Shown here one piece after another: positions 16,020 to 56,949 of a stretch of DNA of 64,000 bases. This DNA comes from a virus, in the IMG/VR virus record IMGVR_UViG_3300032242_001655, positions 1 through 64,000 of that record; one strand, 5' to 3'. The stretch's first letter is position 1. Every line of letters starts with the position of its first letter. A program made the position numbers and the translations under genes. The notes under the pieces are model-generated. The model was not told the origin of the DNA. It ran no database searches and saw only the letters and a program-made list of their open reading frames with translations.

Positions 16020-16110
16020 GGCACGTTAGTCGTCACGGTTATAGGCGTCCGCGCAATTGAACTGCACCGCGTAGTGTGCTGGGGGATAAAGTAACCCCCT
16101 TATTTTTTTC
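16011..16110 (+). ncRNA. Candidate structured RNA (multi-stem junction) followed by an intrinsic terminator
   Basis: GC-rich island; GGCAC/GTGCT closing stem enclosing TAGTCG/CGGTTA and CGCG/CGCG stems; G-U pairs favour the + strand; GGGGG-N9-CCCCC hairpin plus T tract. Confidence 0.45.
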
Positions 16111-16651
16111 TTGGGCCCATAACTCTACCACGCATGTACCCTTCTGGACATATTTCACAATATGTAGAAGTTTTAGTAATAGGATGATGCCACCAATGCC
16201 ATCCAGCACAGGTCTTGAAATTATTTCCACGTTTTTTATTTGCTTCTGATAATTTTTTCTTTGTTTCTTCAGAAACAATATGTTTAGAATTTGTTATTGA
16301 TATTTTACGTTTTGTTTCTTCAGACCTTGGTATTCCAGTTTTAGCAATTGACATTTTTCTTTTAGATTCTTCTGAAAGTTTTAGCCCACTACCACCATCT
16401 CCGCCGTCAGTTTTATTATATAAAATTCCTGTACCAAGATCTTTCCTCCCCCACCATTTTATCATTCGTCTTTCAAATGCCAAGGCTCCTAATTCGGTCA
16501 GATTGGTTTCTAATTTAATTATTCTATTTTTATCTTTAGGAGGTTTTGAAATACGGTCATTGTCATAGGCTCTACGGCCTTTGCCTTTTCCTATATAGTA
16601 GGGTGTGCCGTCCTTTCTTAGGTAGGCATAAACATAATAATGTAAATACAT
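16100..16651 (-). mobile_element. Free-standing GIY-YIG-like homing endonuclease with NUMOD3 repeats
   Basis: [25 protein letters not shown] and three SEE(S/T)K(R/K)K repeats; lies opposite to the flanking genes. Confidence 0.8.
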
Positions 16652-16756
16652 TGCTGATAAGGTCCTTTCTTGTTAGAGTAGTTGGATACGCCAATATCGC
16701 GAACTACATTCATATTTAGTATTTGAACACAGATTGAGATATTAATAAATACTCCA

Positions 16757-17830
16757 ATGCGAGCACGAGAATTTCTATCTGAAGCAAAACAACCTGATCT
16801 AATCTCAATCTTTAGAGATTTTCTGCCCTACGCAATGAAAGAACTAAAACTCGATCATTTGCCCCCAATTAAATTAGAATTAAAAATCAATGATGAACAT
16901 CAGCCTACATTTGGTAAGTTTGTCAATGATGAAGGTGTTATATACCTTGCCATAGAAGATCGTCATCCACTGGACATCATTCGCACACTGGCACACGAAC
17001 TTGTTCACTACAAACAGGGCGTGGAACACAGACTAGGACCTCGGAGCGGCGAAACAGGTTCAGCAGAAGAGAATCAAGCACACGAGATAGCGGGTGTTAT
17101 TATGCGTCATTTTAACAAGGATTCACGTCAATACTTTGACGAACCGGCGGTGAATTTGCGTGAAAGCAGTGAAGAAATACACAATTATCCCAAGTTAGAT
17201 CGAATACTGGATAGACTTGCTAAGATGGTTAATAAAGGGCAACGTATAGATTCGGAAAAATACGGAATGGTTGCGGCCTGTGTACTAGATCCAGATAACC
17301 GTATGGTTGCAGGACTTAACATGCCCGGACCTAATGGCACACGCCGTCACGCAGAACGTGTGGCTATAGACAAGTATCAGGCACAGCATGGTGCTATTCC
17401 ACCAGGCAGTATTGTGCTTACCACTTGCTCACCTTGCTCAGAACATATGGATGAGCGTTATCAAGAATCCTGTACAGAACTATTAAACAAAGTAGGTATT
17501 AAGAAAGTCTACTGCGGTTTCCGTGATCCTACACAAGCAGAAGATGATCGTGAGTTTGACATAATGGAAACCAGTGATAAAGGCATCCGACAAGAATGCC
17601 GTTCGTTTGCTGAAACATTTATGGAATATGAACATGATCAACAAACAGAAAACTTTGCCGATGGTAAGAATCCAGGACGTAAAGGTTTAGCCAAACGTTC
17701 GGGTGTAAACACCAAAGCATCAATCAGCAGTCTACGCAACACAGCAAAACATTCGTCAGGTGAAAAGGCTCGTATGGCACATTGGCTTGCCAATATGAAA
17801 TCAGGTAGAAAGAAACATGCGAGCAAGTGA
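16757..17830 (+). CDS. Multi-domain protein: HExxH zincin + zinc-dependent deaminase + basic C-terminal module; MRAREF N-terminus
   Basis: LAHELVH; HAE...TCSPCSE...C; ENFADGKNPGRKG module. Confidence 0.7.
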   Translation: MRAREFLSEAKQPDLISIFRDFLPYAMKELKLDHLPPIKLELKINDEHQPTFGKFVNDEGVIYLAIEDRHPLDIIRTLAHELVHYKQGVEHRLGPRSGETGSAEENQAHEIAGVIMRHFNKDSRQYFDEPAVNLRESSEEIHNYPKLDRILDRLAKMVNKGQRIDSEKYGMVAACVLDPDNRMVAGLNMPGPNGTRRHAERVAIDKYQAQHGAIPPGSIVLTTCSPCSEHMDERYQESCTELLNKVGIKKVYCGFRDPTQAEDDREFDIMETSDKGIRQECRSFAETFMEYEHDQQTENFADGKNPGRKGLAKRSGVNTKASISSLRNTAKHSSGEKARMAHWLANMKSGRKKHASK

Positions 17831-19055
17831 AATACAATCAAATAAACTTGTGATATTTGATATCGATGATACTCTAGTTCATACCCAAACTAAAGTCCAC
17901 GTTATCAAAGATGGCCATGTTGTCAAAAGTCTTAACAGTCACGACTTTACTCATTACAAACTTCAACCTGGTGAAGAATTTGACTTTGGTGATTTTAGAG
18001 ATGCTAAAGAATTCTTTGCCAATGCCAAACCAATTATTCCTATGCTTGACCAACTTAAACAAGACATTGCTACAGGCAATAAAGTTGTGATGGTTACAGC
18101 CAGAGCAGACTTCAATGATAAAGAATTGTTTTTAGATACCTTTCGCAAGTATGGTGTAGATATGAACAAGGTTCATGTTTACCGTGCTGGTAATATGACT
18201 GGAAAAATACAAACTGAAGAAAAGAAAAAGATCATCATACGTAATTTATTAGACAAAGGCAACTACACCAAGGCCATAATGTATGACGATGCTGTTCCAA
18301 ACTTACATAGTTTTATGGAACTTAAAGCAGAATATCCAAATACCAAGTTCTATGCCTGGCATGTGAGCCTGGAAGGCGAAGCCAGCGAGTATAGTAGAAC
18401 CAATGAAGACCTCGATCGTAGAGGATTCCTTAAAGGATTAGGTGGGGCCGCTGTAGCCGCCGCTGGGTTGAGTGCGCAGGATGCTACTGGTGCTGAATTA
18501 AAGAAAATCAAAGTAGTTGATAATCCTAAATCAAGACTATTATACGATACAGCCAAACCTTATATCAAAGGCACAGAACTAGCACAGTTCATGGCACAGT
18601 GCGCTCACGAAACTGCTAACTTTTCTACTCTAGTAGAATTTGGCGGTCCTGAACATTTTAAAAAATACGATCCACAGTTTAATCCTAAAAAAGCACAAGA
18701 ACTAGGCAACACACAGCCCGGTGATGGTGAAAAATATAAAGGACGTGGATTCCTACAGATCACGGGCCGTGACAATTATAAACGTATTGGTCAAAGTCTT
18801 AAACTGCCATTAGAGCAGAAACCAGAGATGGTAGAAAAACCAGAAGTAGCCGCTTGGACTAGTGTATGGTACTGGATTAAACAGGTCCGCGACAAGGTAA
18901 AAAACTTTGGTAATACAAAACAGGCAACTAAGCCTATCAACCCTGGACTAAAAGGTTTAAAGGATAGAGAGAAAAAGTTTGCCAACTATCAAGCGGCAAT
19001 GGCACCACCTAAAGATAAACATCATCCACATGACATCAAAGTGGCCTCAAGATGA
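17817..19055 (+). CDS. HAD-family phosphatase fused via an internal Tat-like segment to a GH19 lysozyme/chitinase
   Basis: FDIDDT, VTAR and YDD HAD motifs; DRRGFLKGLGGAAVAAAG; FMAQCAHET and YKGRGFLQITGRDNY GH19 motifs. Confidence 0.8.
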   Translation: MRASEIQSNKLVIFDIDDTLVHTQTKVHVIKDGHVVKSLNSHDFTHYKLQPGEEFDFGDFRDAKEFFANAKPIIPMLDQLKQDIATGNKVVMVTARADFNDKELFLDTFRKYGVDMNKVHVYRAGNMTGKIQTEEKKKIIIRNLLDKGNYTKAIMYDDAVPNLHSFMELKAEYPNTKFYAWHVSLEGEASEYSRTNEDLDRRGFLKGLGGAAVAAAGLSAQDATGAELKKIKVVDNPKSRLLYDTAKPYIKGTELAQFMAQCAHETANFSTLVEFGGPEHFKKYDPQFNPKKAQELGNTQPGDGEKYKGRGFLQITGRDNYKRIGQSLKLPLEQKPEMVEKPEVAAWTSVWYWIKQVRDKVKNFGNTKQATKPINPGLKGLKDREKKFANYQAAMAPPKDKHHPHDIKVASR

Positions 19056-21635: not shown

Positions 21636-21872
21636 ATGTCAAACCCCACAGCAATAGAAAAACAAAACTTAGAAGCACACGTTGAGTTATGCGCACAGCG
21701 TTATGATGCACTAGAAAAAAGAATGTCCAGTGTTGAAGGCAAATTAAGTACCCTTCAAGACACAGTGGAAAAAAGCAGTCTTAATACTATTAAGATTCTT
21801 ATCGGCACCGCCGGAACAATCATTGTGGCCATGATGTCATTGGTTGGACTTATCTTAACTAAAATGCCATAA
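21636..21872 (+). CDS. Coiled-coil plus C-terminal TM protein (XhlA/holin-like)
   Basis: LEAHVELCAQRY coiled coil followed by a hydrophobic helix; AGGAG RBS. Confidence 0.55.
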   Translation: MSNPTAIEKQNLEAHVELCAQRYDALEKRMSSVEGKLSTLQDTVEKSSLNTIKILIGTAGTIIVAMMSLVGLILTKMP

Positions 21873-22600
21873 TGAGAGCAAGAGAGTTTATTCACGAATT
21901 TGCACCTCCCGGGCTTGCTGGAGCACTACAGCAAACTATAAACGCGGCCAAACAACCTGGTACGGCAGACTACAGCAAGCAGACATCCGGATATGGTCAA
22001 ACTACAATGAATGCTCCTCAAGGGATACCTGGACAGCAACAAACGCAACAGAATCCCAGCCCTAATCAAACTAAGACTCCGGCCGCACCACAAGGCGGTC
22101 AAGGTACTGCTAACGCACAACAGGCAACATCAGGCGGAACACAGACTCCTCAAAATGGAGTACCTAGCACAGGTACCCCTCCACAGCAAAAGCAACCAAT
22201 GGGTCAACAACCAGCACAGCAGTCTCAACAACCATCAGGTAACAAACCATTAGGTATAGGTGGAGCATTTCTAAGTGGACTTACTGGTGGAAAAGCAACA
22301 TCGTTAGGCAGTTTGGCTAAATTAGGAGCCGCTTCAGTAGCAAGGGCATCCAACATGAATAATGTTGCTGGACAAATAGACCAAAGTCGATATGACTCAG
22401 AATTAAAAACCGGAAATACATCCGGAGGTGCGCCAACTCCACAAGAATTACAGACTACTCTAAAGCAAGGGTCAACAATCAAGATACCCGGTCAGGATGA
22501 TTTTAAAGTAGGTAAAATTGACAACACAGGTGTTGAACTAACCGGTAACAAATTAGGCAAAGTTAAAGTTGATCTTAAATCATTAGCAGGACAGAAATGA
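21872..22600 (+). CDS. Gln/Pro-rich low-complexity protein with MRAREFIHE N-terminus
   Basis: ORF track; shared N-terminal motif. Confidence 0.6.
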   Translation: MRAREFIHEFAPPGLAGALQQTINAAKQPGTADYSKQTSGYGQTTMNAPQGIPGQQQTQQNPSPNQTKTPAAPQGGQGTANAQQATSGGTQTPQNGVPSTGTPPQQKQPMGQQPAQQSQQPSGNKPLGIGGAFLSGLTGGKATSLGSLAKLGAASVARASNMNNVAGQIDQSRYDSELKTGNTSGGAPTPQELQTTLKQGSTIKIPGQDDFKVGKIDNTGVELTGNKLGKVKVDLKSLAGQK

Positions 22601-28113: not shown

Positions 28114-30465
28114 ATGATTACAGTAGTTAAACGTAGCGGTGAAAGGGTTCCATTAGATGTTTCAAAGATCCAAAGACAAGTGGCAAACGCATGTAGAGGT
28201 ATCGACGGCGTTAGCCAGTCGATGATTGAGATCAAAGCACAAATTGAACTCCATGACGGTATGACAACAGAGACAATAGATGAGTTATTACTCAAGGCTA
28301 TGGTCGATCTTATCGATGAAACAGAAAACCCAGAGATCAATAATGTAAATTATCAATATGTAGCAGGACGTCAAAAAGTCTCTATGCTACGCAAGGAGGT
28401 TTACGGAGAGTATGATCCACCAAAACTTTTTTCTATTGTACAACAAAATGTTAAACTTGGAATGTACACTCCAGAATTGCTCGAGTGGTACACGGAAGAT
28501 GAGTGGAACATTATTGATCTGTTCATCGATCATGCCAAGGATGAAGACTACACCTATGCGGCTGTAGCACAGTTGGCAGAAAAGTATTTGGTACAGAATC
28601 GTGCCACTGGAAAAATTTATGAAACCCCTCAGGTTCGATATGCTGTAGCGGCGGCCACAGCCTTTCATAATGAACCAACAGAAACAAGGTTAAAATATGT
28701 TAAAGAATATTACGAGTGTGCAAGTGATGGTCATTTTACTCTTGCTACTCCTGTTTTGGCCGGCCTTGGAACAACTACTAAGCAATTTAGTTCATGTGTG
28801 CTTATTAGCAGTGACGACACATTAGACTCAATTTTTGCCGCAGGTGAAATGATGGCCAAGTATGCTAGTAAACGTGCTGGCATAGGATTAGAGATTGGAC
28901 GTATTCGCCCTCTCGGCGCCCCTATTAGAAATGGAGAAATTAAACACACAGGTCTAATTCCATTTTTGAAGAAATGGTTTGCTGATCTACGTTCATGCTC
29001 ACAAGGTGGTATCCGTAACGCATCATGTACAGTTACTTTCCCTGTATGGCATTATCAGTTTGAAGATCTTATCGTACTTAAAAATAATCAAGGTACAGAA
29101 GAAACTCGAGTAAGACAGATGGATTACTCTGTTGTGGTCAATAAGATGTTCTGGAATCGTTATCGCAATGACGAGTTGATTACTCTTTTTGATCCTGCTG
29201 AAGTACCCGACTTATATGAAGCCTACTACAGAGATTCTGCAGAGTTTGAAAAATTGTATACACAATATGAACAAGATAAGACTATTAAGAAAAAGACATT
29301 ACCGGCAGTTGAGATATTCAAAAATGGAATCCTTAAAGAAAGGACTGATACGGGGCGCATATATCTTGTCAATATCGACAACGTCATCAATCAAGGTCCG
29401 TTTGATACAAAAACAGATCCAATATATCAATCCAATCTATGCCAAGAGATACTTTTACCCACCCGTCCTTTCCAGAGAATTGAAGATCCAGAGGGACGAA
29501 TTGCTCTTTGCACTCTTGGGTCAATCAACTGGGGAGCCTTCCGTAACCCTCAGGAGATGAGAAAGTGCTGTAGAGTCTTGGTTCGAAGTTTAAGTAATTT
29601 GCTAAACTATCAAGACTTCTTATCAGTACAAAGCAAACTTGCCAATAAAGAGTTTGAACCGTTAGGCGTTGGTGTTACTAACTTGGCCTACTGGCATGCT
29701 CGACGTTCATTCAAATACGGTGATGCAGATGCACTTGCTGAAGTTAAACGTTGGATGGAACATCAGGCCTACTACTTAACTGAGATGAGCGTTGAACTTG
29801 CCAAAGAGCGTGGTGCTTGTGAACGTAGCCAATTTACTTACTATGGACAAGGTGTCTTCCCCTGGGAAAGACGCAATACAGGAGTTAATGAATTAACAGA
29901 TTTTACTCCAAGTCTTGATTGGGAAACACTACGCTCTGACCTAAAACAATACGGCATTCGTAATGCTACACTAATGGCAGTTGCTCCAGTAGAATCAAGT
30001 TCTGTTGTTCTAAACAGTACTAATGGTATTGAAATGCCGATGGAAATGATCAGTGTTAAAGAATCTAAAGCAGGATCATTTGTACAGGTAGTACCAGAAT
30101 ACAAACGTCTAAAAAATCGTTATCAATTAATGTGGGATCAACAAGACTGCATTGGATACCTAAAAACAGCCTGTGTTTTAGCCGCGTATGTTGATCAAAG
30201 TTTATCAACCAACACATTTTATAATCCAGCACACTTTGAAGATGGCAAGGTTCCTGGAACTTTAATTGCCAAAAATCTAATGTTGGCTTACAAATGGGGT
30301 TTGAAGACTGTATATTATAGTTTAATCAATAAAGTTGGTGCCAAAGCCAGTGTGACTAATACTAACGTGGTTAATCATGTGAATGGAGTTGCCAAGGCAA
30401 TCAACGGTGCTGATAATGTTATATTATATGAAGATGACGCCGACTGCGAAGCCTGTAAGTTATGA
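28114..30465 (+). CDS. nrdA: Ribonucleotide reductase class Ia alpha subunit
   Basis: ATP cone (VVKRSG), QFSSC, SNLCQEI, APVESSS, KTVYY and C-terminal CEAC. Confidence 0.97.
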   Translation: MITVVKRSGERVPLDVSKIQRQVANACRGIDGVSQSMIEIKAQIELHDGMTTETIDELLLKAMVDLIDETENPEINNVNYQYVAGRQKVSMLRKEVYGEYDPPKLFSIVQQNVKLGMYTPELLEWYTEDEWNIIDLFIDHAKDEDYTYAAVAQLAEKYLVQNRATGKIYETPQVRYAVAAATAFHNEPTETRLKYVKEYYECASDGHFTLATPVLAGLGTTTKQFSSCVLISSDDTLDSIFAAGEMMAKYASKRAGIGLEIGRIRPLGAPIRNGEIKHTGLIPFLKKWFADLRSCSQGGIRNASCTVTFPVWHYQFEDLIVLKNNQGTEETRVRQMDYSVVVNKMFWNRYRNDELITLFDPAEVPDLYEAYYRDSAEFEKLYTQYEQDKTIKKKTLPAVEIFKNGILKERTDTGRIYLVNIDNVINQGPFDTKTDPIYQSNLCQEILLPTRPFQRIEDPEGRIALCTLGSINWGAFRNPQEMRKCCRVLVRSLSNLLNYQDFLSVQSKLANKEFEPLGVGVTNLAYWHARRSFKYGDADALAEVKRWMEHQAYYLTEMSVELAKERGACERSQFTYYGQGVFPWERRNTGVNELTDFTPSLDWETLRSDLKQYGIRNATLMAVAPVESSSVVLNSTNGIEMPMEMISVKESKAGSFVQVVPEYKRLKNRYQLMWDQQDCIGYLKTACVLAAYVDQSLSTNTFYNPAHFEDGKVPGTLIAKNLMLAYKWGLKTVYYSLINKVGAKASVTNTNVVNHVNGVAKAINGADNVILYEDDADCEACKL

Positions 30466-30638
30466 AGAGTGTATTTGCAAGAATACTAAGTGAAATATTA
30501 TATTACCTAGGGCATTGGATCAGTTTTCCAATGCACTGGTTTAATTGGGCCTGGCTGTACCCTGTATACAATCGATTGATGATTAGTAGCAGTAATATAC
30601 AAGACTGGGCTGGAAATGAATTACCTTGGAAAAAATAA
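30462..30638 (+). CDS. 58-aa Trp-rich hypothetical protein between nrdA and nrdB
   Basis: ATGA overlap with the nrdA stop; ends immediately before the nrdB ATG. Confidence 0.55.
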   Translation: MKSVFARILSEILYYLGHWISFPMHWFNWAWLYPVYNRLMISSSNIQDWAGNELPWKK

Positions 30639-31739
30639 ATGAGTAAAGCACAATACGATATATCAAAACAAACAAACTATCTAAAACGTAAAATGTTTTT
30701 AGACGAAGCAGGTCCTGTAACAGTACAACGCTTTGAAGAAGTCAAGTATCCTAAGATTGCCAAGTTTGAAGAACTGGCTCGTGGATTTTTCTGGGTTCCT
30801 GAAGAAATCAGTCTTACCAAAGACAAAATGGATCACAAGGAAGCCAGTGATGCGATCAAACACATTTTTACTTCTAACCTACTACGACAAACAGCACTAG
30901 ACAGTATTCAAGGTCGTGCTCCAAATCAAGTGTTTTCACCAGTGATTTCAATTCCCGAACTCGAAGCACTGGTAAGCAATTGGAGTTTCTTTGAAACAAA
31001 TATTCATTCAAAAAGTTATAGCCATATTATTCGTAATGTTTATGGTGTGCCAAAAGAAGAGTTTAACAAAATTCATGACACTAAAGAAATTGTAGACATG
31101 GCTTCTAATATCGGACGCTACTACGAAAATCTACATCAAATTAATTGTGCTAAAGAACTAGACGGATATATCGCAGAGGAAGATCATGTTAAGGCAATTT
31201 GGTTGGCCCTAAATGCCAGTTATGCTCTTGAAGCACTTCGATTCATGGTGTCATTTGCTACCAGTTTGGCAATGGTTGAAAATAAAATTTACATTGGCAA
31301 CGGCAACATTATCAGCCTTATCCTACAAGACGAAATCCTACATGCAGAATGGACTGGTTGGTTAATCAATCAGGTTGTCAAAGAAGATGAACGCTTTGCA
31401 AAAGCCAAAGAAGATTGTGAAGCAGAAGTTTATCAAATGTATATGGATGTTGTTCGTGAAGAAAAAGAATGGGCAGACTACTTGTTCAAATTAGGACCTG
31501 TAATTGGATTGAATGCTAACATTCTAAAAGATTTTGTAGACTATACAGCATTTACTAGATTGAAAGAAATTGGAATCAAGTACGAAGCAGAACATCCACG
31601 CCAGAGTCCCATCCCCTGGTTTAACAAGCATGTAAATATCAACAAGAAGCAAACAGCACTACAGGAAAACGAAAGTACCAATTATGTTATTGGTGTGATG
31701 AGTGACAATGTATCGCTAGAAGAATTACCAGAACTATAA
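30639..31739 (+). CDS. nrdB: Ribonucleotide reductase class Ia beta subunit
   Basis: FFWVPEE, LDSIQ, ETNIHSKSY, EALRF, DEILH, QENESTNY. Confidence 0.97.
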   Translation: MSKAQYDISKQTNYLKRKMFLDEAGPVTVQRFEEVKYPKIAKFEELARGFFWVPEEISLTKDKMDHKEASDAIKHIFTSNLLRQTALDSIQGRAPNQVFSPVISIPELEALVSNWSFFETNIHSKSYSHIIRNVYGVPKEEFNKIHDTKEIVDMASNIGRYYENLHQINCAKELDGYIAEEDHVKAIWLALNASYALEALRFMVSFATSLAMVENKIYIGNGNIISLILQDEILHAEWTGWLINQVVKEDERFAKAKEDCEAEVYQMYMDVVREEKEWADYLFKLGPVIGLNANILKDFVDYTAFTRLKEIGIKYEAEHPRQSPIPWFNKHVNINKKQTALQENESTNYVIGVMSDNVSLEELPEL

Positions 31740-31748
31740 AGGACAAAT

Positions 31749-31973
31749 ATGACAGCCATTGTATGGAGCAAAGATCACTGCCCCTATTGTGATCAAGCCA
31801 AGGCATTGTTAAAAATGAAGGGCATAGAGTTTGAAGAACGTAACATTAATAAAGATTATACTCGTGAGCAATTATTAGAAGCAGTACCCAATGCCCGAAC
31901 TGTTCCTCAGATATTTTTAGATGATCAGTTGATTGGGGGCTTTACAGAATTGAGGGCTCACCTAAATGGATAA
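31749..31973 (+). CDS. grx: Glutaredoxin
   Basis: CPYC, TVPQIF, IGGF. Confidence 0.95.
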   Translation: MTAIVWSKDHCPYCDQAKALLKMKGIEFEERNINKDYTREQLLEAVPNARTVPQIFLDDQLIGGFTELRAHLNG

Positions 31974-32484
31974 ACTTCAAGAACTAAAAGCCGCACTATC
32001 GCAGGTTACTCCTGATGAAGTAAAGAAAAAAGAAAGTGACGAATCCTTTGGAGTTATAGCAGAAGAAGTTTCTAAGGCAATGGAAGGCATAACTATAAGT
32101 CCTTTGAGCTCGCTTGATTTAAGTGCTCTTAATAATTCTATTACTATTCCACCTAGTTCAAGTTATTCAATTAATACCGGGGCGGGGTTGAACGGTACAT
32201 GGCTTACAGCCGGTGGATTAAATGGATCGGGCCCAGCATACAGCACTATTACATCTTCTGCTACCCCTGGCCTGTCTCTTGATGTAAATGGTGATGCTAA
32301 TTTTGAAGGCGATATTAAATGGAAGGGTCGAAGTTTAACTAATATGATAGAAACTATTGAAAAGCGTTTGGCTATCCTGACACCAGATCCTAAAAAATTA
32401 GAAAAATACGAAGCACTACAAAAGGCCTACGATCACTATAAACTAATGGAAAAACTTTGTCATGACGACTCCACAGACAAGTGA
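31966..32484 (+). CDS. Hypothetical phage protein
   Basis: ORF; C-terminal coiled coil. Confidence 0.6.
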   Translation: MDKLQELKAALSQVTPDEVKKKESDESFGVIAEEVSKAMEGITISPLSSLDLSALNNSITIPPSSSYSINTGAGLNGTWLTAGGLNGSGPAYSTITSSATPGLSLDVNGDANFEGDIKWKGRSLTNMIETIEKRLAILTPDPKKLEKYEALQKAYDHYKLMEKLCHDDSTDK

Positions 32485-32623
32485 TCCTAAAGTTGCTCAA
32501 TTAGAAAGATTAGTAGCACAACTAACACAACAGAACCTTGAACTGCACAAACGTGTAAGTTTATTAGAGCGTGAAAACAACAGACGTAAAAACGAAATTA
32601 ACCAAGTAGCAAGATCAAAATGA
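32462..32623 (+). CDS. 53-aa coiled-coil protein
   Basis: MTTPQTSDPKVAQLERLVAQL...; ATGA coupling to thyX. Confidence 0.55.
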   Translation: MTTPQTSDPKVAQLERLVAQLTQQNLELHKRVSLLERENNRRKNEINQVARSK

Positions 32624-33318
32624 AAGTTAAATTAATATCATCAAGTAAGCCAAGCCGCCAGTTGGCAACTGAAGGAATTTATGATGCCCAAGAACTCATT
32701 GCTTTCTGCGCCCGTGTCAGCAATCCCTCCAACCAATTTAATGTTGAGACTTCAGAAAAACTTATTAGATATCTCATCAAGCACCAACACTGGAGCCCAC
32801 TTGAAATGGTCTCTGCGTGCCTTGAGATCACAACTACAAGAGATATTGCCCGACAAATTCTCAGACACAGAAGTTTCTCATTCCAAGAGTTCAGCCAGCG
32901 TTACGCTGATCCAACTAAGGATCTCAAATTTGTACTTAGAGACGCCCGTAGACAAGACGACAAGAATAGACAGAACAGTATAGACTTAGATATACAGACT
33001 AACGATGCTGATCGATTCCTACAGTATCAATGGGAACGGATGCAGGAAAATGTTATTGAACAGGCTCGAAATGCTTATGAGTGGGCGATTAAATCAGGTA
33101 TTGCTAAAGAACAGGCTCGTGCTGTCCTACCTGAAGGACTTATTGAAAGCAGAATCTATATGAACGGAACACTACGCTCTTGGATACATTTTATTGAACT
33201 GCGTTCAGCAAATGGAACACAAAAAGAGCATCAATTGGTTGCCATAGAATGTGCCAAGGTTATTGCTGAAATATTTCCAATGGCAGAAGAATATGTCCAA
33301 TCAAGCCAAGGGGCGTAG
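32620..33318 (+). CDS. thyX: FAD-dependent thymidylate synthase
   Basis: HWSPLE, RQILRHRSFSFQEFSQRY, EQARAVLP. Confidence 0.95.
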   Translation: MKVKLISSSKPSRQLATEGIYDAQELIAFCARVSNPSNQFNVETSEKLIRYLIKHQHWSPLEMVSACLEITTTRDIARQILRHRSFSFQEFSQRYADPTKDLKFVLRDARRQDDKNRQNSIDLDIQTNDADRFLQYQWERMQENVIEQARNAYEWAIKSGIAKEQARAVLPEGLIESRIYMNGTLRSWIHFIELRSANGTQKEHQLVAIECAKVIAEIFPMAEEYVQSSQGA

Positions 33319-33769
33319 TAGTTACGACAGTACAGGTACTGGGATTGTTCATTTCTTTAATAGGAATGTAACATCCTATCCAACCGAAGCCGGTGGACCA
33401 AAGTTTGATCTAATTCCTGTTGCCAAACAAAAAGACATAATGATCAATCATGCTCGGCTATACGCCCAGCAAGAGTATGATCGTATAATGGAATTGGTCA
33501 GTGTATTACAAAAACAAGCAGATGAAATAAAACGGCGTCTTGATGTTACTGATATGGTCTATTCCGCTGAATACGAATTTCAAGTGGTCATGGGACAAAG
33601 TTATTGGTTGGTGTGGAGCAAGCGAAAAGAAAAGATGTTGCTAGTGGGCCTCGGACCCGATGATTGGAATACAGGTGCTCCGGTTGACTACGAATACATA
33701 ACGAATGTAAAATATATGGGTGACCATACATGGTTAGAAATAAACAAAAAGGATCAAAATGTTACTTAA
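33293..33769 (+). CDS. DUF2452-like hypothetical protein
   Basis: YPTEAGGPKF..., QADEIKRR, GDHTW; ATG 33293 preferred. Confidence 0.55.
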   Translation: MSNQAKGRSSYDSTGTGIVHFFNRNVTSYPTEAGGPKFDLIPVAKQKDIMINHARLYAQQEYDRIMELVSVLQKQADEIKRRLDVTDMVYSAEYEFQVVMGQSYWLVWSKRKEKMLLVGLGPDDWNTGAPVDYEYITNVKYMGDHTWLEINKKDQNVT

Positions 33770-34046
33770 AAAACCAATTACACAAGGTACTGTTGTAAGC
33801 ATTAAAATTATCAACGGTGACGAAATTATTGCTCGGTACGAAAGTGAAGACGCAGATACGGTTACAATCAATAAACCATTGGCATTGACCATGGGCCAAG
33901 GAGGACTTGGGATGATTCCTTGGGTATTCTTAGGTGATGCTGATACTATTACCCTACAAAAACAGCACGTATTCTTTGTTATTCAAAGCAAAAAAGATGC
34001 CGCTGATCAATATATGCAGGGTACTACAGGTATTGCTCTAGTGTAA
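33759..34046 (+). CDS. Small Sm-like fold hypothetical protein
   Basis: VVSIKIINGDEIIAR pattern; AAGGA RBS. Confidence 0.5.
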   Translation: MLLKKPITQGTVVSIKIINGDEIIARYESEDADTVTINKPLALTMGQGGLGMIPWVFLGDADTITLQKQHVFFVIQSKKDAADQYMQGTTGIALV

Positions 34047-55236: not shown

Positions 55237-55888
55237 AAAAAGCATTGCCTGTGCTAAAGAGTTTGAAAGACGTTTTAGAGAAACAGGAACATTAGAAGTT
55301 TCAAATATAGACGAAAGTGTAGGTTTATATGACCTTTCATTTTCATCTATGCGTTATCGGAGGGCACATCTTAGCATAGTTGATGCTCGAGAAACTAAAA
55401 ATGTATGGATGCTACATGTAACAGTATTCCCTCACACAAATGACAGTGCTCCTATCTACGGGTTTGATATTGTAGCAGGTCCTAATAAAGTTAGCGGTGC
55501 GTTTCACGATTTCAGTAAAGCAGGTGATGCTGACCATTATATGATGAAGTGGTTTGCTAATTGGACTGACGAGTTAGACTGGAATAAACGTAGAGAATTA
55601 CCTGAGTGGGCAAAAAACATCTTTAGTGATAGCATAGTTGCTATAGGTGCAGTTGATGCAGAAGAACTGGGTTATTTTACAGATTTAGGATTGTCTACAC
55701 TTAATTACTATTTAGATAGGGTAGGAAACACTCAAGAAAGCGGATTTGATTATCATATGGCACAGAATCGCTACTGTTATTATCAAAAGCAAAACCCACA
55801 TACTCCCAAGGTATTGGTTAATTTAGGGTTCACAGAATCAAAGGCCAAAGAATTTATTGCTAACAATTTGTTTCCAGAATTAGCATAA
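55220..55888 (+). CDS. Ferredoxin-dependent bilin reductase (PcyA/PcyX-like)
   Basis: RRAHL, MLHVTVFP, PIYGFDIVAG, AFHDFS, RELPEWA..IFS, YCYYQKQNPHT. Confidence 0.85.
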   Translation: MSSVFEKSIACAKEFERRFRETGTLEVSNIDESVGLYDLSFSSMRYRRAHLSIVDARETKNVWMLHVTVFPHTNDSAPIYGFDIVAGPNKVSGAFHDFSKAGDADHYMMKWFANWTDELDWNKRRELPEWAKNIFSDSIVAIGAVDAEELGYFTDLGLSTLNYYLDRVGNTQESGFDYHMAQNRYCYYQKQNPHTPKVLVNLGFTESKAKEFIANNLFPELA

Positions 55889-55896
55889 ATATCGCT

Positions 55897-56949
55897 ATGA
55901 GAGCAAAAGAATTTTTGTTAGAAAAAAAGTTATCTCCTGCAGATATATTAAAATATCCAAATTCTCCCAAGGATCGTTTACCTACCTTCCTTGAAAAAAT
56001 CATAATGAAATCACCATTTACTCTATCAACTGGTGAAAAAGTTGTTATCGATCCCAATGAATTTGAACGTGTGGCATCCTGGTTTGACGGTCCAAGAACC
56101 ACAAATCTCAAAATGAATACTGTTGATGGTCGATCAATTTCTTTTTCAGCATTAGAAAAGACCAAGGAGTTTGGTGGAGAACAAGCCGGCAAACGCGAAA
56201 CTGTTGAACAAGGACAAATTGAAGGTATTGCTCAAGAATTAGAAGATGCCAAAGCCGGACGTCCATCAGTTCCGCTTGCGGTAGGCAATACCACAGTGAA
56301 TGCCGCTACAGTTAGAAAAACTCCCGAACTGATTAATGGCCGTCAACCCAAAAGCGACATGACTGTGTATGACGAGAATGATAATCCTGTAGCATGGGTA
56401 AGTCTCAAAGATGTAAAATTTAGATGGGGCGGGTGGAATCATATGATGCATCGTCCTGAAATAGCCGCATGGCTTGCTCGTATCAAAGCAATCGACGGCG
56501 GTGTTTTACAAAGCAAAGAATCATATGGATTACATGCCAGTGATGATATAAAGAATCTAATTGTATTTGGAAAAGATTTTGATTCTGGAAAATTTGGTAT
56601 CAGCAATGTAAATGCTGTATTGATAGGGTGGACGCATATCAAGAAATCTGGAAAGAAATATATGTTGGCCGCAGACCACATTTATCCAAATGGTGTAACA
56701 CCTACTGGCGCACACGAACCTTACTTAGTTGTACGATACATGCTAGGTCGTTCAGATGTTGGACTCAAAAATGCTCGTGCTGAAACAAACACCAAAAGCG
56801 AGACTAGAAATGTCAAATGGCTTGACACTGATAAAGAAGTAAAATCTGTTGCCGAACCTAAAGTTAACCCAATAAAACAGTCGGGACTCACACCCACGCC
56901 TGCTCAACAACAATTAGGCAAGCCGATGGGTGCCCCACCCGGACAATGA
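55897..56949 (+). CDS. MRAKEFLLE-type late protein with a PD-(D/E)XK-like motif
   Basis: TAAATA-N5-ATG; PKSDM...WVSLK. Confidence 0.55.
   Translation: MRAKEFLLEKKLSPADILKYPNSPKDRLPTFLEKIIMKSPFTLSTGEKVVIDPNEFERVASWFDGPRTTNLKMNTVDGRSISFSALEKTKEFGGEQAGKRETVEQGQIEGIAQELEDAKAGRPSVPLAVGNTTVNAATVRKTPELINGRQPKSDMTVYDENDNPVAWVSLKDVKFRWGGWNHMMHRPEIAAWLARIKAIDGGVLQSKESYGLHASDDIKNLIVFGKDFDSGKFGISNVNAVLIGWTHIKKSGKKYMLAADHIYPNGVTPTGAHEPYLVVRYMLGRSDVGLKNARAETNTKSETRNVKWLDTDKEVKSVAEPKVNPIKQSGLTPTPAQQQLGKPMGAPPGQ

Follow-up and report, generated by a model that had tools for sequence, protein, structure and literature searches.

An internal Tat-type signal directly behind a glutamate joint in a leader-tagged phage lysin: a candidate for unmasking by head-protease cleavage

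The window analysed here is a stretch of 64,000 nucleotides that makes up the first 64 kb of a 96-kb virus fragment in IMG/VR (IMGVR_UViG_3300032242_001655). On its plus strand, at positions 17817..19055, lies an open reading frame (ORF) of 412 amino acids in which the ORF list, Pfam and PHROGs together delimit a leader, a HAD phosphatase, an internal signal of the twin-arginine translocation (Tat) type and a GH19 lysin. Comparison with relatives confirmed, at the level of sequence, that the lysin module has a genuine export-type signal at residues 198-226, that this signal is conserved and that it stands directly after a Glu. The best explanation we can offer is that a freshwater jumbo phage of the T4-like kind encodes here a polyprotein assembled from cassettes, whose lysin module would bring along its own cleavable Tat signal. 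We further propose, with a probability of roughly 40%, that cleavage by the head protease exposes this signal on an accessory lysin packaged in the virion.

Results

An internal Tat-type signal between two folded domains

The ORF opens with the leader MRASEIQSN (17817..17843, plus strand), a degenerate member of the MRAxEF(I/L)xE family that lacks the terminal I/L-x-E. The HAD-type phosphatase module as a whole spans residues 1-197 (17817..18407), carries DIDDT, TAR and YDD motifs and ends ASEYSRTNE; its assignment comes from a weak Pfam match at residues 7-138, a weak NCBIfam match and PHROG 415. The last three residues of this module, T195-N196-E197 (18399..18407), form a joint that is marked by the family statistics given below as a candidate protease site, with the cut after E197. 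The Tat-type signal, DLDRRGFLKGLGGAAVAAAGLSAQDATGA, follows at once at residues 198-226 (18408..18494), as detected with TIGR01409 and Pfam TAT_signal, and is itself followed by ELKK. This is the segment that the initial annotation had described as an RRxFLK signal placed at residue 198 after SRTNE, and the ORF reads exactly so. The signal comprises an n-region DLD, a twin arginine at 18417-18422, FLK, the Gly/Ala-rich h-region GLGGAAVAAAGL, and a c-region SAQDATGA/E, where position -3 is T and position -1 is A, so that the predicted cut (slash) is ATGA/E. Compared with the Tat consensus (S/T)-R-R-x-F-L-K, the ORF reads D-R-R-G-F-L-K and is in agreement with it. When the fragment from D198 was searched, the NCBIfam model TIGR01409 (TAT_signal_seq) gave 20.3 bits, over its cut-off of 16.7. 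In the Pfam search of the ORF, TAT_signal (PF10518) matched residues 198-216 with 19.8 bits, under its cut-off of 22.7. A pattern of RR-x-[FL]-[LIVM] followed by at least 11 uncharged residues was also scanned for in 1.24 million six-frame residues from the window's record and two related phage records; the site in this ORF was the single match in a long open frame. The position of the signal is not the N-terminal one of a Tat signal, as it begins at residue 198; Tat signals inside a protein are, however, accepted as a minority class (PMC13673990).

Behind the signal, residues 227-412 (18495..19052) are predicted to be the mature GH19 lysin, with the Pfam core at 18570-18896. The domain matched Pfam PF00182 at residues 252-360 above the cut-off (E 1.4e-9), and the lysin matched PHROG 181 endolysin with an E value of 3.8e-38. 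HET(265), a spacing of eight residues, E(274) and GRGFLQITG are all present, which we take to be the catalytic motifs of GH19, and H264 and E265 are invariant in the alignment of relatives. An AlphaFold2 model built with 18 homologs contained two folded domains, at about 7-193 and 233-398. The predicted local distance difference test (pLDDT) was about 60-90 in the HAD domain and about 90 in GH19, and fell below 50 at residues 194-232; joint and signal are therefore predicted to be an exposed linker outside any fold.

The fusion is genuine

One conceivable origin of the ORF is an assembly or sequencing frameshift that joined two genes, and the initial annotation had pointed to an out-of-frame ATG at 18403 as a possible sign of this. 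Such an ATG does exist (18403-18405), and it yields 12 codons, then a stop; in one natural strain it is destroyed by the synonymous change T18404C. The joint is bridged by contigs of three studies with 46-67 substitutions and zero gaps. Among the 36 strain differences listed, 31 fell at the third codon position and 31 were synonymous, that is, variation follows the reading frame. Moreover, a homolog with 98% identity (P0001) exists in another metagenome, and further fusions of HAD, RR-type signal and lysin, at about 55-63% identity, were found in other metagenomes. Given that the contigs are gapless, that most changes are synonymous and that diverged homologs keep the fusion, a frameshift or assembly fusion was ruled out as the origin of the ORF, and we regard this explanation as having next to no chance of being correct. 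The window stretch itself was found in freshwater and lake metagenomes. The single metatranscriptome run gave short contigs only, at low depth and in part from relatives.

An internal translation start was likewise rejected. The in-frame starts nearest to the signal are an ATG at M167 (18315) and a GTG at V183 (18363); neither has a Shine-Dalgarno sequence, as the initial annotation had already remarked, and neither is conserved. In addition, relatives read RTNE/GWKD across the joint without a start codon.

The signal travels with the lysin module

When 20 kb were compared by megablast with a phage collection in a search for cultured relatives, no match was obtained; tblastn against the phage collection recovered the GH19 core only, at no more than 43% identity; high-identity matches to the signal or to the HAD module were absent. 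A search of a large protein collection, by comparison, yielded 2478 relatives. In these, the HAD module, at 80-90% identity, stands at the N-terminus of proteins with many different C-terminal cargos, and the cargo is always attached directly behind the HAD end EY.RT(N/D)E. The cargos comprised GH19, LysM with GH19, LysM with Phage_lysozyme2, a deoxycytidylate (dCMP)-type deaminase, Gly/Tyr-rich segments and unknown modules. Upstream of the lysin module, in turn, were found the 9-residue leader alone, HAD, HD, GNAT, NUDIX, a nucleotidyltransferase (NTase) or unknown modules. Minimal genes consist of a leader, an RRGFL signal and GH19 (P0169, P0232, P0146 and P0122); in the leader-only forms the leader runs straight into the signal region, as in EFITE then DMSRRGFL (P0169) or EFIEE then DWRS (P0140).

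Of 179 lysin relatives, 168 have an uncharged, Gly/Ala-rich stretch ahead of the catalytic domain, at 12-468 residues from the N-terminus. Among these 168, 16-17 (about 10%) were of the RR type, 114 carried E-G-W-K-D and an h-region but no RR, and 38 were variants. Only wall-acting modules (GH19, LysM and Phage_lysozyme2) carry the signal; the deaminase, HAD and similar modules do not. The signal is kept with the lysin behind this varied set of upstream modules, which shows it to be a conserved part of the lysin module irrespective of what precedes it. RR-x-FL was invariant in the 18 RR-type relatives, including every RR-type HAD fusion, although the h-regions vary, and the RR-type signals mostly end AQA/K, a normal signal-peptidase site. 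When the signal types were placed on a tree built from the catalytic domain, at least three and up to six gains or losses were required to account for the RR type among the non-RR types. By these alignments, the signal is under selection and is interchangeable with a non-Tat signal. Conservation of the twin arginine, which the initial annotation had named as a check on its proposal, therefore holds within the RR type, but most relatives use a signal without RR. The phenomenon is thus not Tat-specific, which weakens the original interpretation.

The same data bear on the possibility that the Gly/Ala-rich segment is a membrane-insertion or tethering element, either similar to signal-arrest-release (SAR) domains or used during ejection to fix the lysin to the inner membrane from its periplasmic face. 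The h-regions are Gly/Ala-rich in the manner of SAR domains, and most relatives lack RR. Strict RR-x-F-L-(K/G/Q) followed by AxA, however, is the pattern that TatC and signal peptidase recognise from the cytoplasm, and several gains or losses of this pattern have occurred; furthermore, SAR domains are N-terminal and must exit the membrane, and a 197-residue N-terminal domain would prevent that exit. We therefore hold a tether to be quite improbable.

Alternatively, the HAD-lysin fusion could be the recent product of roughly neutral cassette shuffling. The buried signal would then be silent and functional only in the leader-only forms, and the lysin of the fusion would stay cytoplasmic until a holin acts, or would have no role. 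Within the window's lysin clade (at least 77% identity), the upstream context alternates between the leader alone, HAD and an unrelated 330-residue module; fusion thus appears to be frequent and labile, as this explanation would have it. On the other hand, fusions of HAD, signal and lysin persist from 98% down to about 55% identity, in several lineages and with both signal types; RR-x-FL is retained in all RR-type HAD fusions; and strain variation over the joint and signal is overwhelmingly synonymous. Neutral shuffling is accordingly an improbable account of the fusion.

Two further observations concern the HAD module. A low-complexity module, consisting of a basic KKRRKR stretch and then AAYGPGPYGGYGY..GYSGDGGG, lies between HAD and other modules in some relatives (P0010, P0013, P0021, P0085; L063 505-1971). 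In a 335-kb relative, HAD stands alone as a 208-residue gene with the end RTNENMRRI (L057, G001:254847-255480); two small single-pass membrane proteins are encoded directly 5′ of it, and a DUF4337-like membrane protein is encoded on the opposite strand.

Module joints are Glu sites and most proteins share a leader

Statistics on the joints were compiled from distinct sequence contexts. The residue just before the signal (P1) was Glu in 112 of 113 contexts for the WK-type signal and in 18/18 for the RR type, and L, I, V or M occupied P3 in 77% and 78% of these contexts, respectively. The signal-less basic NFADG tail described below was also preceded by Glu in all 33 of its contexts, with V, I, L or M at P3 in 31 (94%). 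As a background, L/I/V/M is found at P3 of 19% of all Glu residues in the family proteins. These counts show that modules are joined at Glu sites of the form L/I/V-x-E. T at P3 was confined to direct HAD fusions, including ORF 17817-19055.

A leader of the form M-(R/K)-(A/L/I)-x-(E/D)-(F/I/L) opens 212 of 240 proteins, and many of these leaders end I/L-x-E at residues 7-9. Four genes in the window begin with such a leader (starts at 16757, 17817, 21872 and 55897), and their leader codons differ. This points to conservation of the leader at the protein level, and, for the window, it rules out a conserved DNA recombination or RNA motif as the reason for the leader.

Relatives carry T4-type head genes and a separate lysis cassette

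In T4, internal proteins bear a 10-residue capsid targeting sequence (CTS), MKTYQEFIAE (PMC8442874), in which residues 4 and 7 are important for targeting, whereas processing is governed by residues 8 and 10 (PMC9026906, PMC3012670). The protease gp21 cleaves after Glu at L/I-x-E (PMC9026906), and the joints of the present family agree with that motif. Fusions of the CTS to any protein are packaged and then delivered into the next cell, and the T4 internal proteins are a fast-evolving set with only the CTS in common (PMC9026906, PMC3012670). A gp21-type protease (Peptidase_S77) was present in two related jumbo-phage records, one of 335 kb and 95% complete (G001) and the other of 188 kb (G002). 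In the latter, the gene order is gp21-gp22-gp23, and an L-S-E in the capsid protein aligns with T4 gp23 L63-T-E65, the end of the 65-residue propeptide. Homology and alignment thus show that the relatives have the T4 head-maturation set, namely gp21 protease, gp22 scaffold and gp23 with an aligned L-x-E. The same record contains six consecutive leader-tagged genes (G002 28765-33825), including a fusion of HAD, a Gly/Tyr segment, signal and GH19. One gene there (L069, G002:32753-32947) encodes only 64 residues, the leader MRAHEFILE and the basic NFADG...ANMKSGK tail and nothing else; its product would seem to be a counterpart of T4's internal proteins of small size and basic charge.

G002 and a further relative (G004) also encode, apart from the leader-tagged genes, a GH19 of about 209 residues that lacks a signal and is followed by membrane proteins. 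Signal-less GH19 genes of 206-209 residues were located at L067 1168-2861 (G002) and G001:141388-142008; in G002 the gene is followed by an overlapping 160-residue protein with a transmembrane segment and a coiled coil, and then by a 111-residue membrane protein. Judged by gene content and order, this arrangement has the appearance of a canonical lysis cassette. It follows that the leader-tagged lysin is likely to be an accessory enzyme, and the idea that it serves as the main endolysin was set aside as unlikely.

Neighbouring leader-tagged genes in the window

The gene immediately upstream of the lysin gene (16757..17830, plus strand) encodes the leader MRAREFLSE, an HExxH zincin-like module, a dCMP-type deaminase (Pfam PF00383) and the basic NFADG tail. 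Its last 14 nt (17817-17830) are shared with the beginning of the lysin gene, and its TGA stop lies within the MRASE codons. The overlap suggests translational coupling of the two predicted polyproteins. Its N-terminal module (16757-17200) contains HELVH...E, has a weak match to the DUF6782 metallopeptidase (E 0.014) and recurs as an internal copy in P0012. As a candidate for the processing enzyme this module is doubtful, given that the DUF6782 match is weak and that G, D and N at P1′ do not point to a zincin. Its tail (17642-17827) is an example of the basic C-terminal module of about 55 residues, NFADG(K/R)NP...KAS.SSLR...LAHW.ANMK.G.KK, that ends many leader-tagged proteins and has no Pfam match; by its composition it may be a DNA-binding or core-binding tail. 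The leader scan also found genes that begin MRAREFIHE (21872..22600, plus strand) and MRAKEFLLE (55897..56949, plus strand).

Two leader-tagged starts are preceded, at a distance of 6-8 nt, by the sequence ATAAATA (16745-16752 and 55883-55889), which is similar to the late promoter of T4, TATAAATA; a Shine-Dalgarno sequence is not visible there. The late-promoter motif ATAAATAC was not enriched in the window (6 found, compared with 5 expected), and a scan of the window for sigma-70 promoters and terminators gave nothing above chance. Just upstream of the pair of leader genes, on the minus strand, an ORF at 16100-16651 has a start that, by eye, resembles the GIY-YIG homing-endonuclease motif.

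Discussion

Taken together, the Glu joint, the exposed signal and the leader family are best accommodated by a processing model. The MRAxE leader would act like the T4 CTS and carry the precursor into the prohead. A cut by the prohead protease after E197 would then free the HAD enzyme and leave the lysin with a Tat signal at its new N-terminus, and both products would be ejected with the DNA into the next host. There, TatABC would export the folded lysin, and signal peptidase would remove the signal after A226. In this model the virion would deliver the lysin as an accessory wall hydrolase, distinct from the endolysin of lysis. The initial annotation had likewise suggested that a protease unmasks the signal after Glu197. 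Much in the family speaks for this part of the proposal, namely the near-invariant Glu, the L/I/V at P3, a gp21-type protease, an L-x-E in the capsid protein and CTS-like leaders. The further suggestion of a lysis timer is unlikely under the T4 model; gp21 would act within proheads, and the cleaved lysin would stay in the head.

Several points weigh against the processing model. The joint of the ORF itself is T-N-E, with T instead of L/I/V at P3, and its leader keeps M-R-A-x-E-I without a cleavable I/L-x-E at residues 7-9. The 96-kb record contains neither a protease nor a capsid gene, and the relatives that bear the protease are only about 50% identical, over only 11-34 of the 83 window genes. 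In the minimal genes, moreover, no more than 9-12 residues precede the signal; the cell that makes the protein would probably recognise it already, and capsid targeting would then face competition from export. We also know of no benefit that a phage would draw from export of a lysin at the start of infection.

Finally, an internal Tat signal can work without any cleavage, as it does in FecR (PMC13673990). In a 2026 review, substrates in which an internal Tat signal follows a folded cis-side domain and the C-terminal domain comes to lie on the trans side are termed 'Class V Tat substrates', with FecR as the example (PMC13673990). If the ORF belonged to this class, no protease would be involved: the signal would work in place, the HAD domain would remain cytoplasmic, the Tat signal would insert as a hairpin, and the folded GH19 domain would reach the periplasm of the producing cell, where signal peptidase would release it or it would stay tethered. 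It could then serve as a holin-independent accessory endolysin late in infection. This explanation gains from the fact that the class is established (PMC13673990), from the model of folded HAD, flexible signal and folded lysin, and from a motif that scores above the TIGR01409 cut-off; also, the minimal relatives, with their signal close to the N-terminus, would be exported directly. Nevertheless, it leaves unexplained why a near-invariant Glu with L/I/V at P3 stands before the signals and likewise before a basic tail that has no signal, and why short, weakly hydrophobic, non-RR signals are found behind up to 468 residues of unrelated modules. The n-regions of the family are net acidic unless cut, and the relatives already have a canonical endolysin cassette. 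In addition, the FecR signal is an uncleaved anchor, but most relatives here end AQA/K, like cleavable signals. We therefore consider export of the uncut protein unlikely, though it is the most serious alternative to the processing model.

A more general reading, and one we regard as doubtful, is that T4-like jumbo phages package wall hydrolases in leader-tagged polyproteins, that the prohead protease cuts these at a Glu before a Tat- or Sec-type signal, and that the host exports the lysin after ejection, which would amount to an 'inside-out' remodelling of the wall at the start of infection. In open-access papers, no Tat-dependent phage endolysin was found in titles or abstracts. Our limited search of this literature also found no description of the combination seen here, that is, export signals exactly at head-protease-type joints of leader-tagged polyproteins, together with a Tat-type signal on a phage lysin. 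The initial annotation had considered the whole system undescribed; in view of the FecR precedent (PMC13673990), this stands for the protease gating but not for the internal position of a Tat signal. Were the processing model to hold, 'exported after injection' would join the known fates of phage ejection proteins, and a phage lysin would be a Tat substrate. If that model is true, this would also be, to our knowledge, the first virus in which an export signal is kept hidden until capsid maturation uncovers it. Even without that model, the family offers a large and clean natural experiment on how modules are shuffled, with hundreds of architectures that combine a fixed leader, Glu joints, a signal travelling with wall-acting modules and a basic tail. 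Internal signal peptides of phages should thus not be written off as annotation noise.

Among known systems, the T4 internal proteins (IPI-III and Alt) are alike in that a short conserved leader is placed on unrelated, fast-evolving cargo (MRAxEF(I/L)xE here, MKTYQEFIAE in T4). The leaders of the neighbouring genes, MRAREFLSE, MRAREFIHE and MRAKEFLLE, fit this CTS-like pattern, and the Glu joints with L/I/V at P3, the small basic leader-tagged proteins and the gp21-gp22-gp23 genes of the relatives are shared as well. Unlike the T4 proteins, those described here are predicted to be polyproteins that consist of many modules and contain more than one joint; their cargo, a candidate for packaging and cleavage, includes a lysin that brings an export signal along, and the leader and joint of ORF 17817-19055 are non-canonical.

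The likeness to FecR lies in the order of the parts: a folded N-terminal domain in the cytoplasm is followed by an internal twin-arginine signal and then by a C-terminal domain that acts in the periplasm, which for the phage protein is a prediction. The same anatomy appears in the AlphaFold model, with HAD at 7-193, linker and signal at 194-232 and GH19 at 233-398. However, FecR carries an uncleaved anchor of a cellular regulator, whereas the present signal is phage-encoded, follows a Glu joint and is swappable with non-RR signals. Its short Gly/Ala-rich h-region and the AxA sites of the relatives suggest a cleavable signal, unlike that of FecR.

Secreted and SAR endolysins (fOg44 Lys44, P1 Lyz and phage 21 R) have N-terminal, Sec-dependent signals. 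They resemble the present case in being wall hydrolases of phages that possess a signal or Gly/Ala-rich membrane segment of their own, and the host exports them without the need for a holin. Here, by contrast, the signal is internal and of the Tat type, and a canonical endolysin is encoded separately in this lineage of phages. Although the segment is Gly/Ala-rich, it differs from that of a SAR endolysin in lying behind a 197-residue domain and in carrying the Tat consensus.

In phiKZ-like giant phages, many head-packaged proteins are cut after Glu (S/A-x-E) by a gp21-related protease and delivered to the host (PMC9026906). Their cleavage motif is of another class, and, unlike the proteins described here, they have no shared leader and no described export signals at the cleavage sites. 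Polyvalent proteins of phages and conjugative elements, reportedly defined by Iyer, Aravind and colleagues in 2017, are said to be large, shuffled multi-enzyme proteins, often with wall hydrolases and zincin peptidases; reportedly, they would enter the host together with the DNA and undergo processing. The present family differs from these in its T4-CTS-like leader, its Glu joints, its basic tail module and the smaller size of its proteins (200-700 residues).

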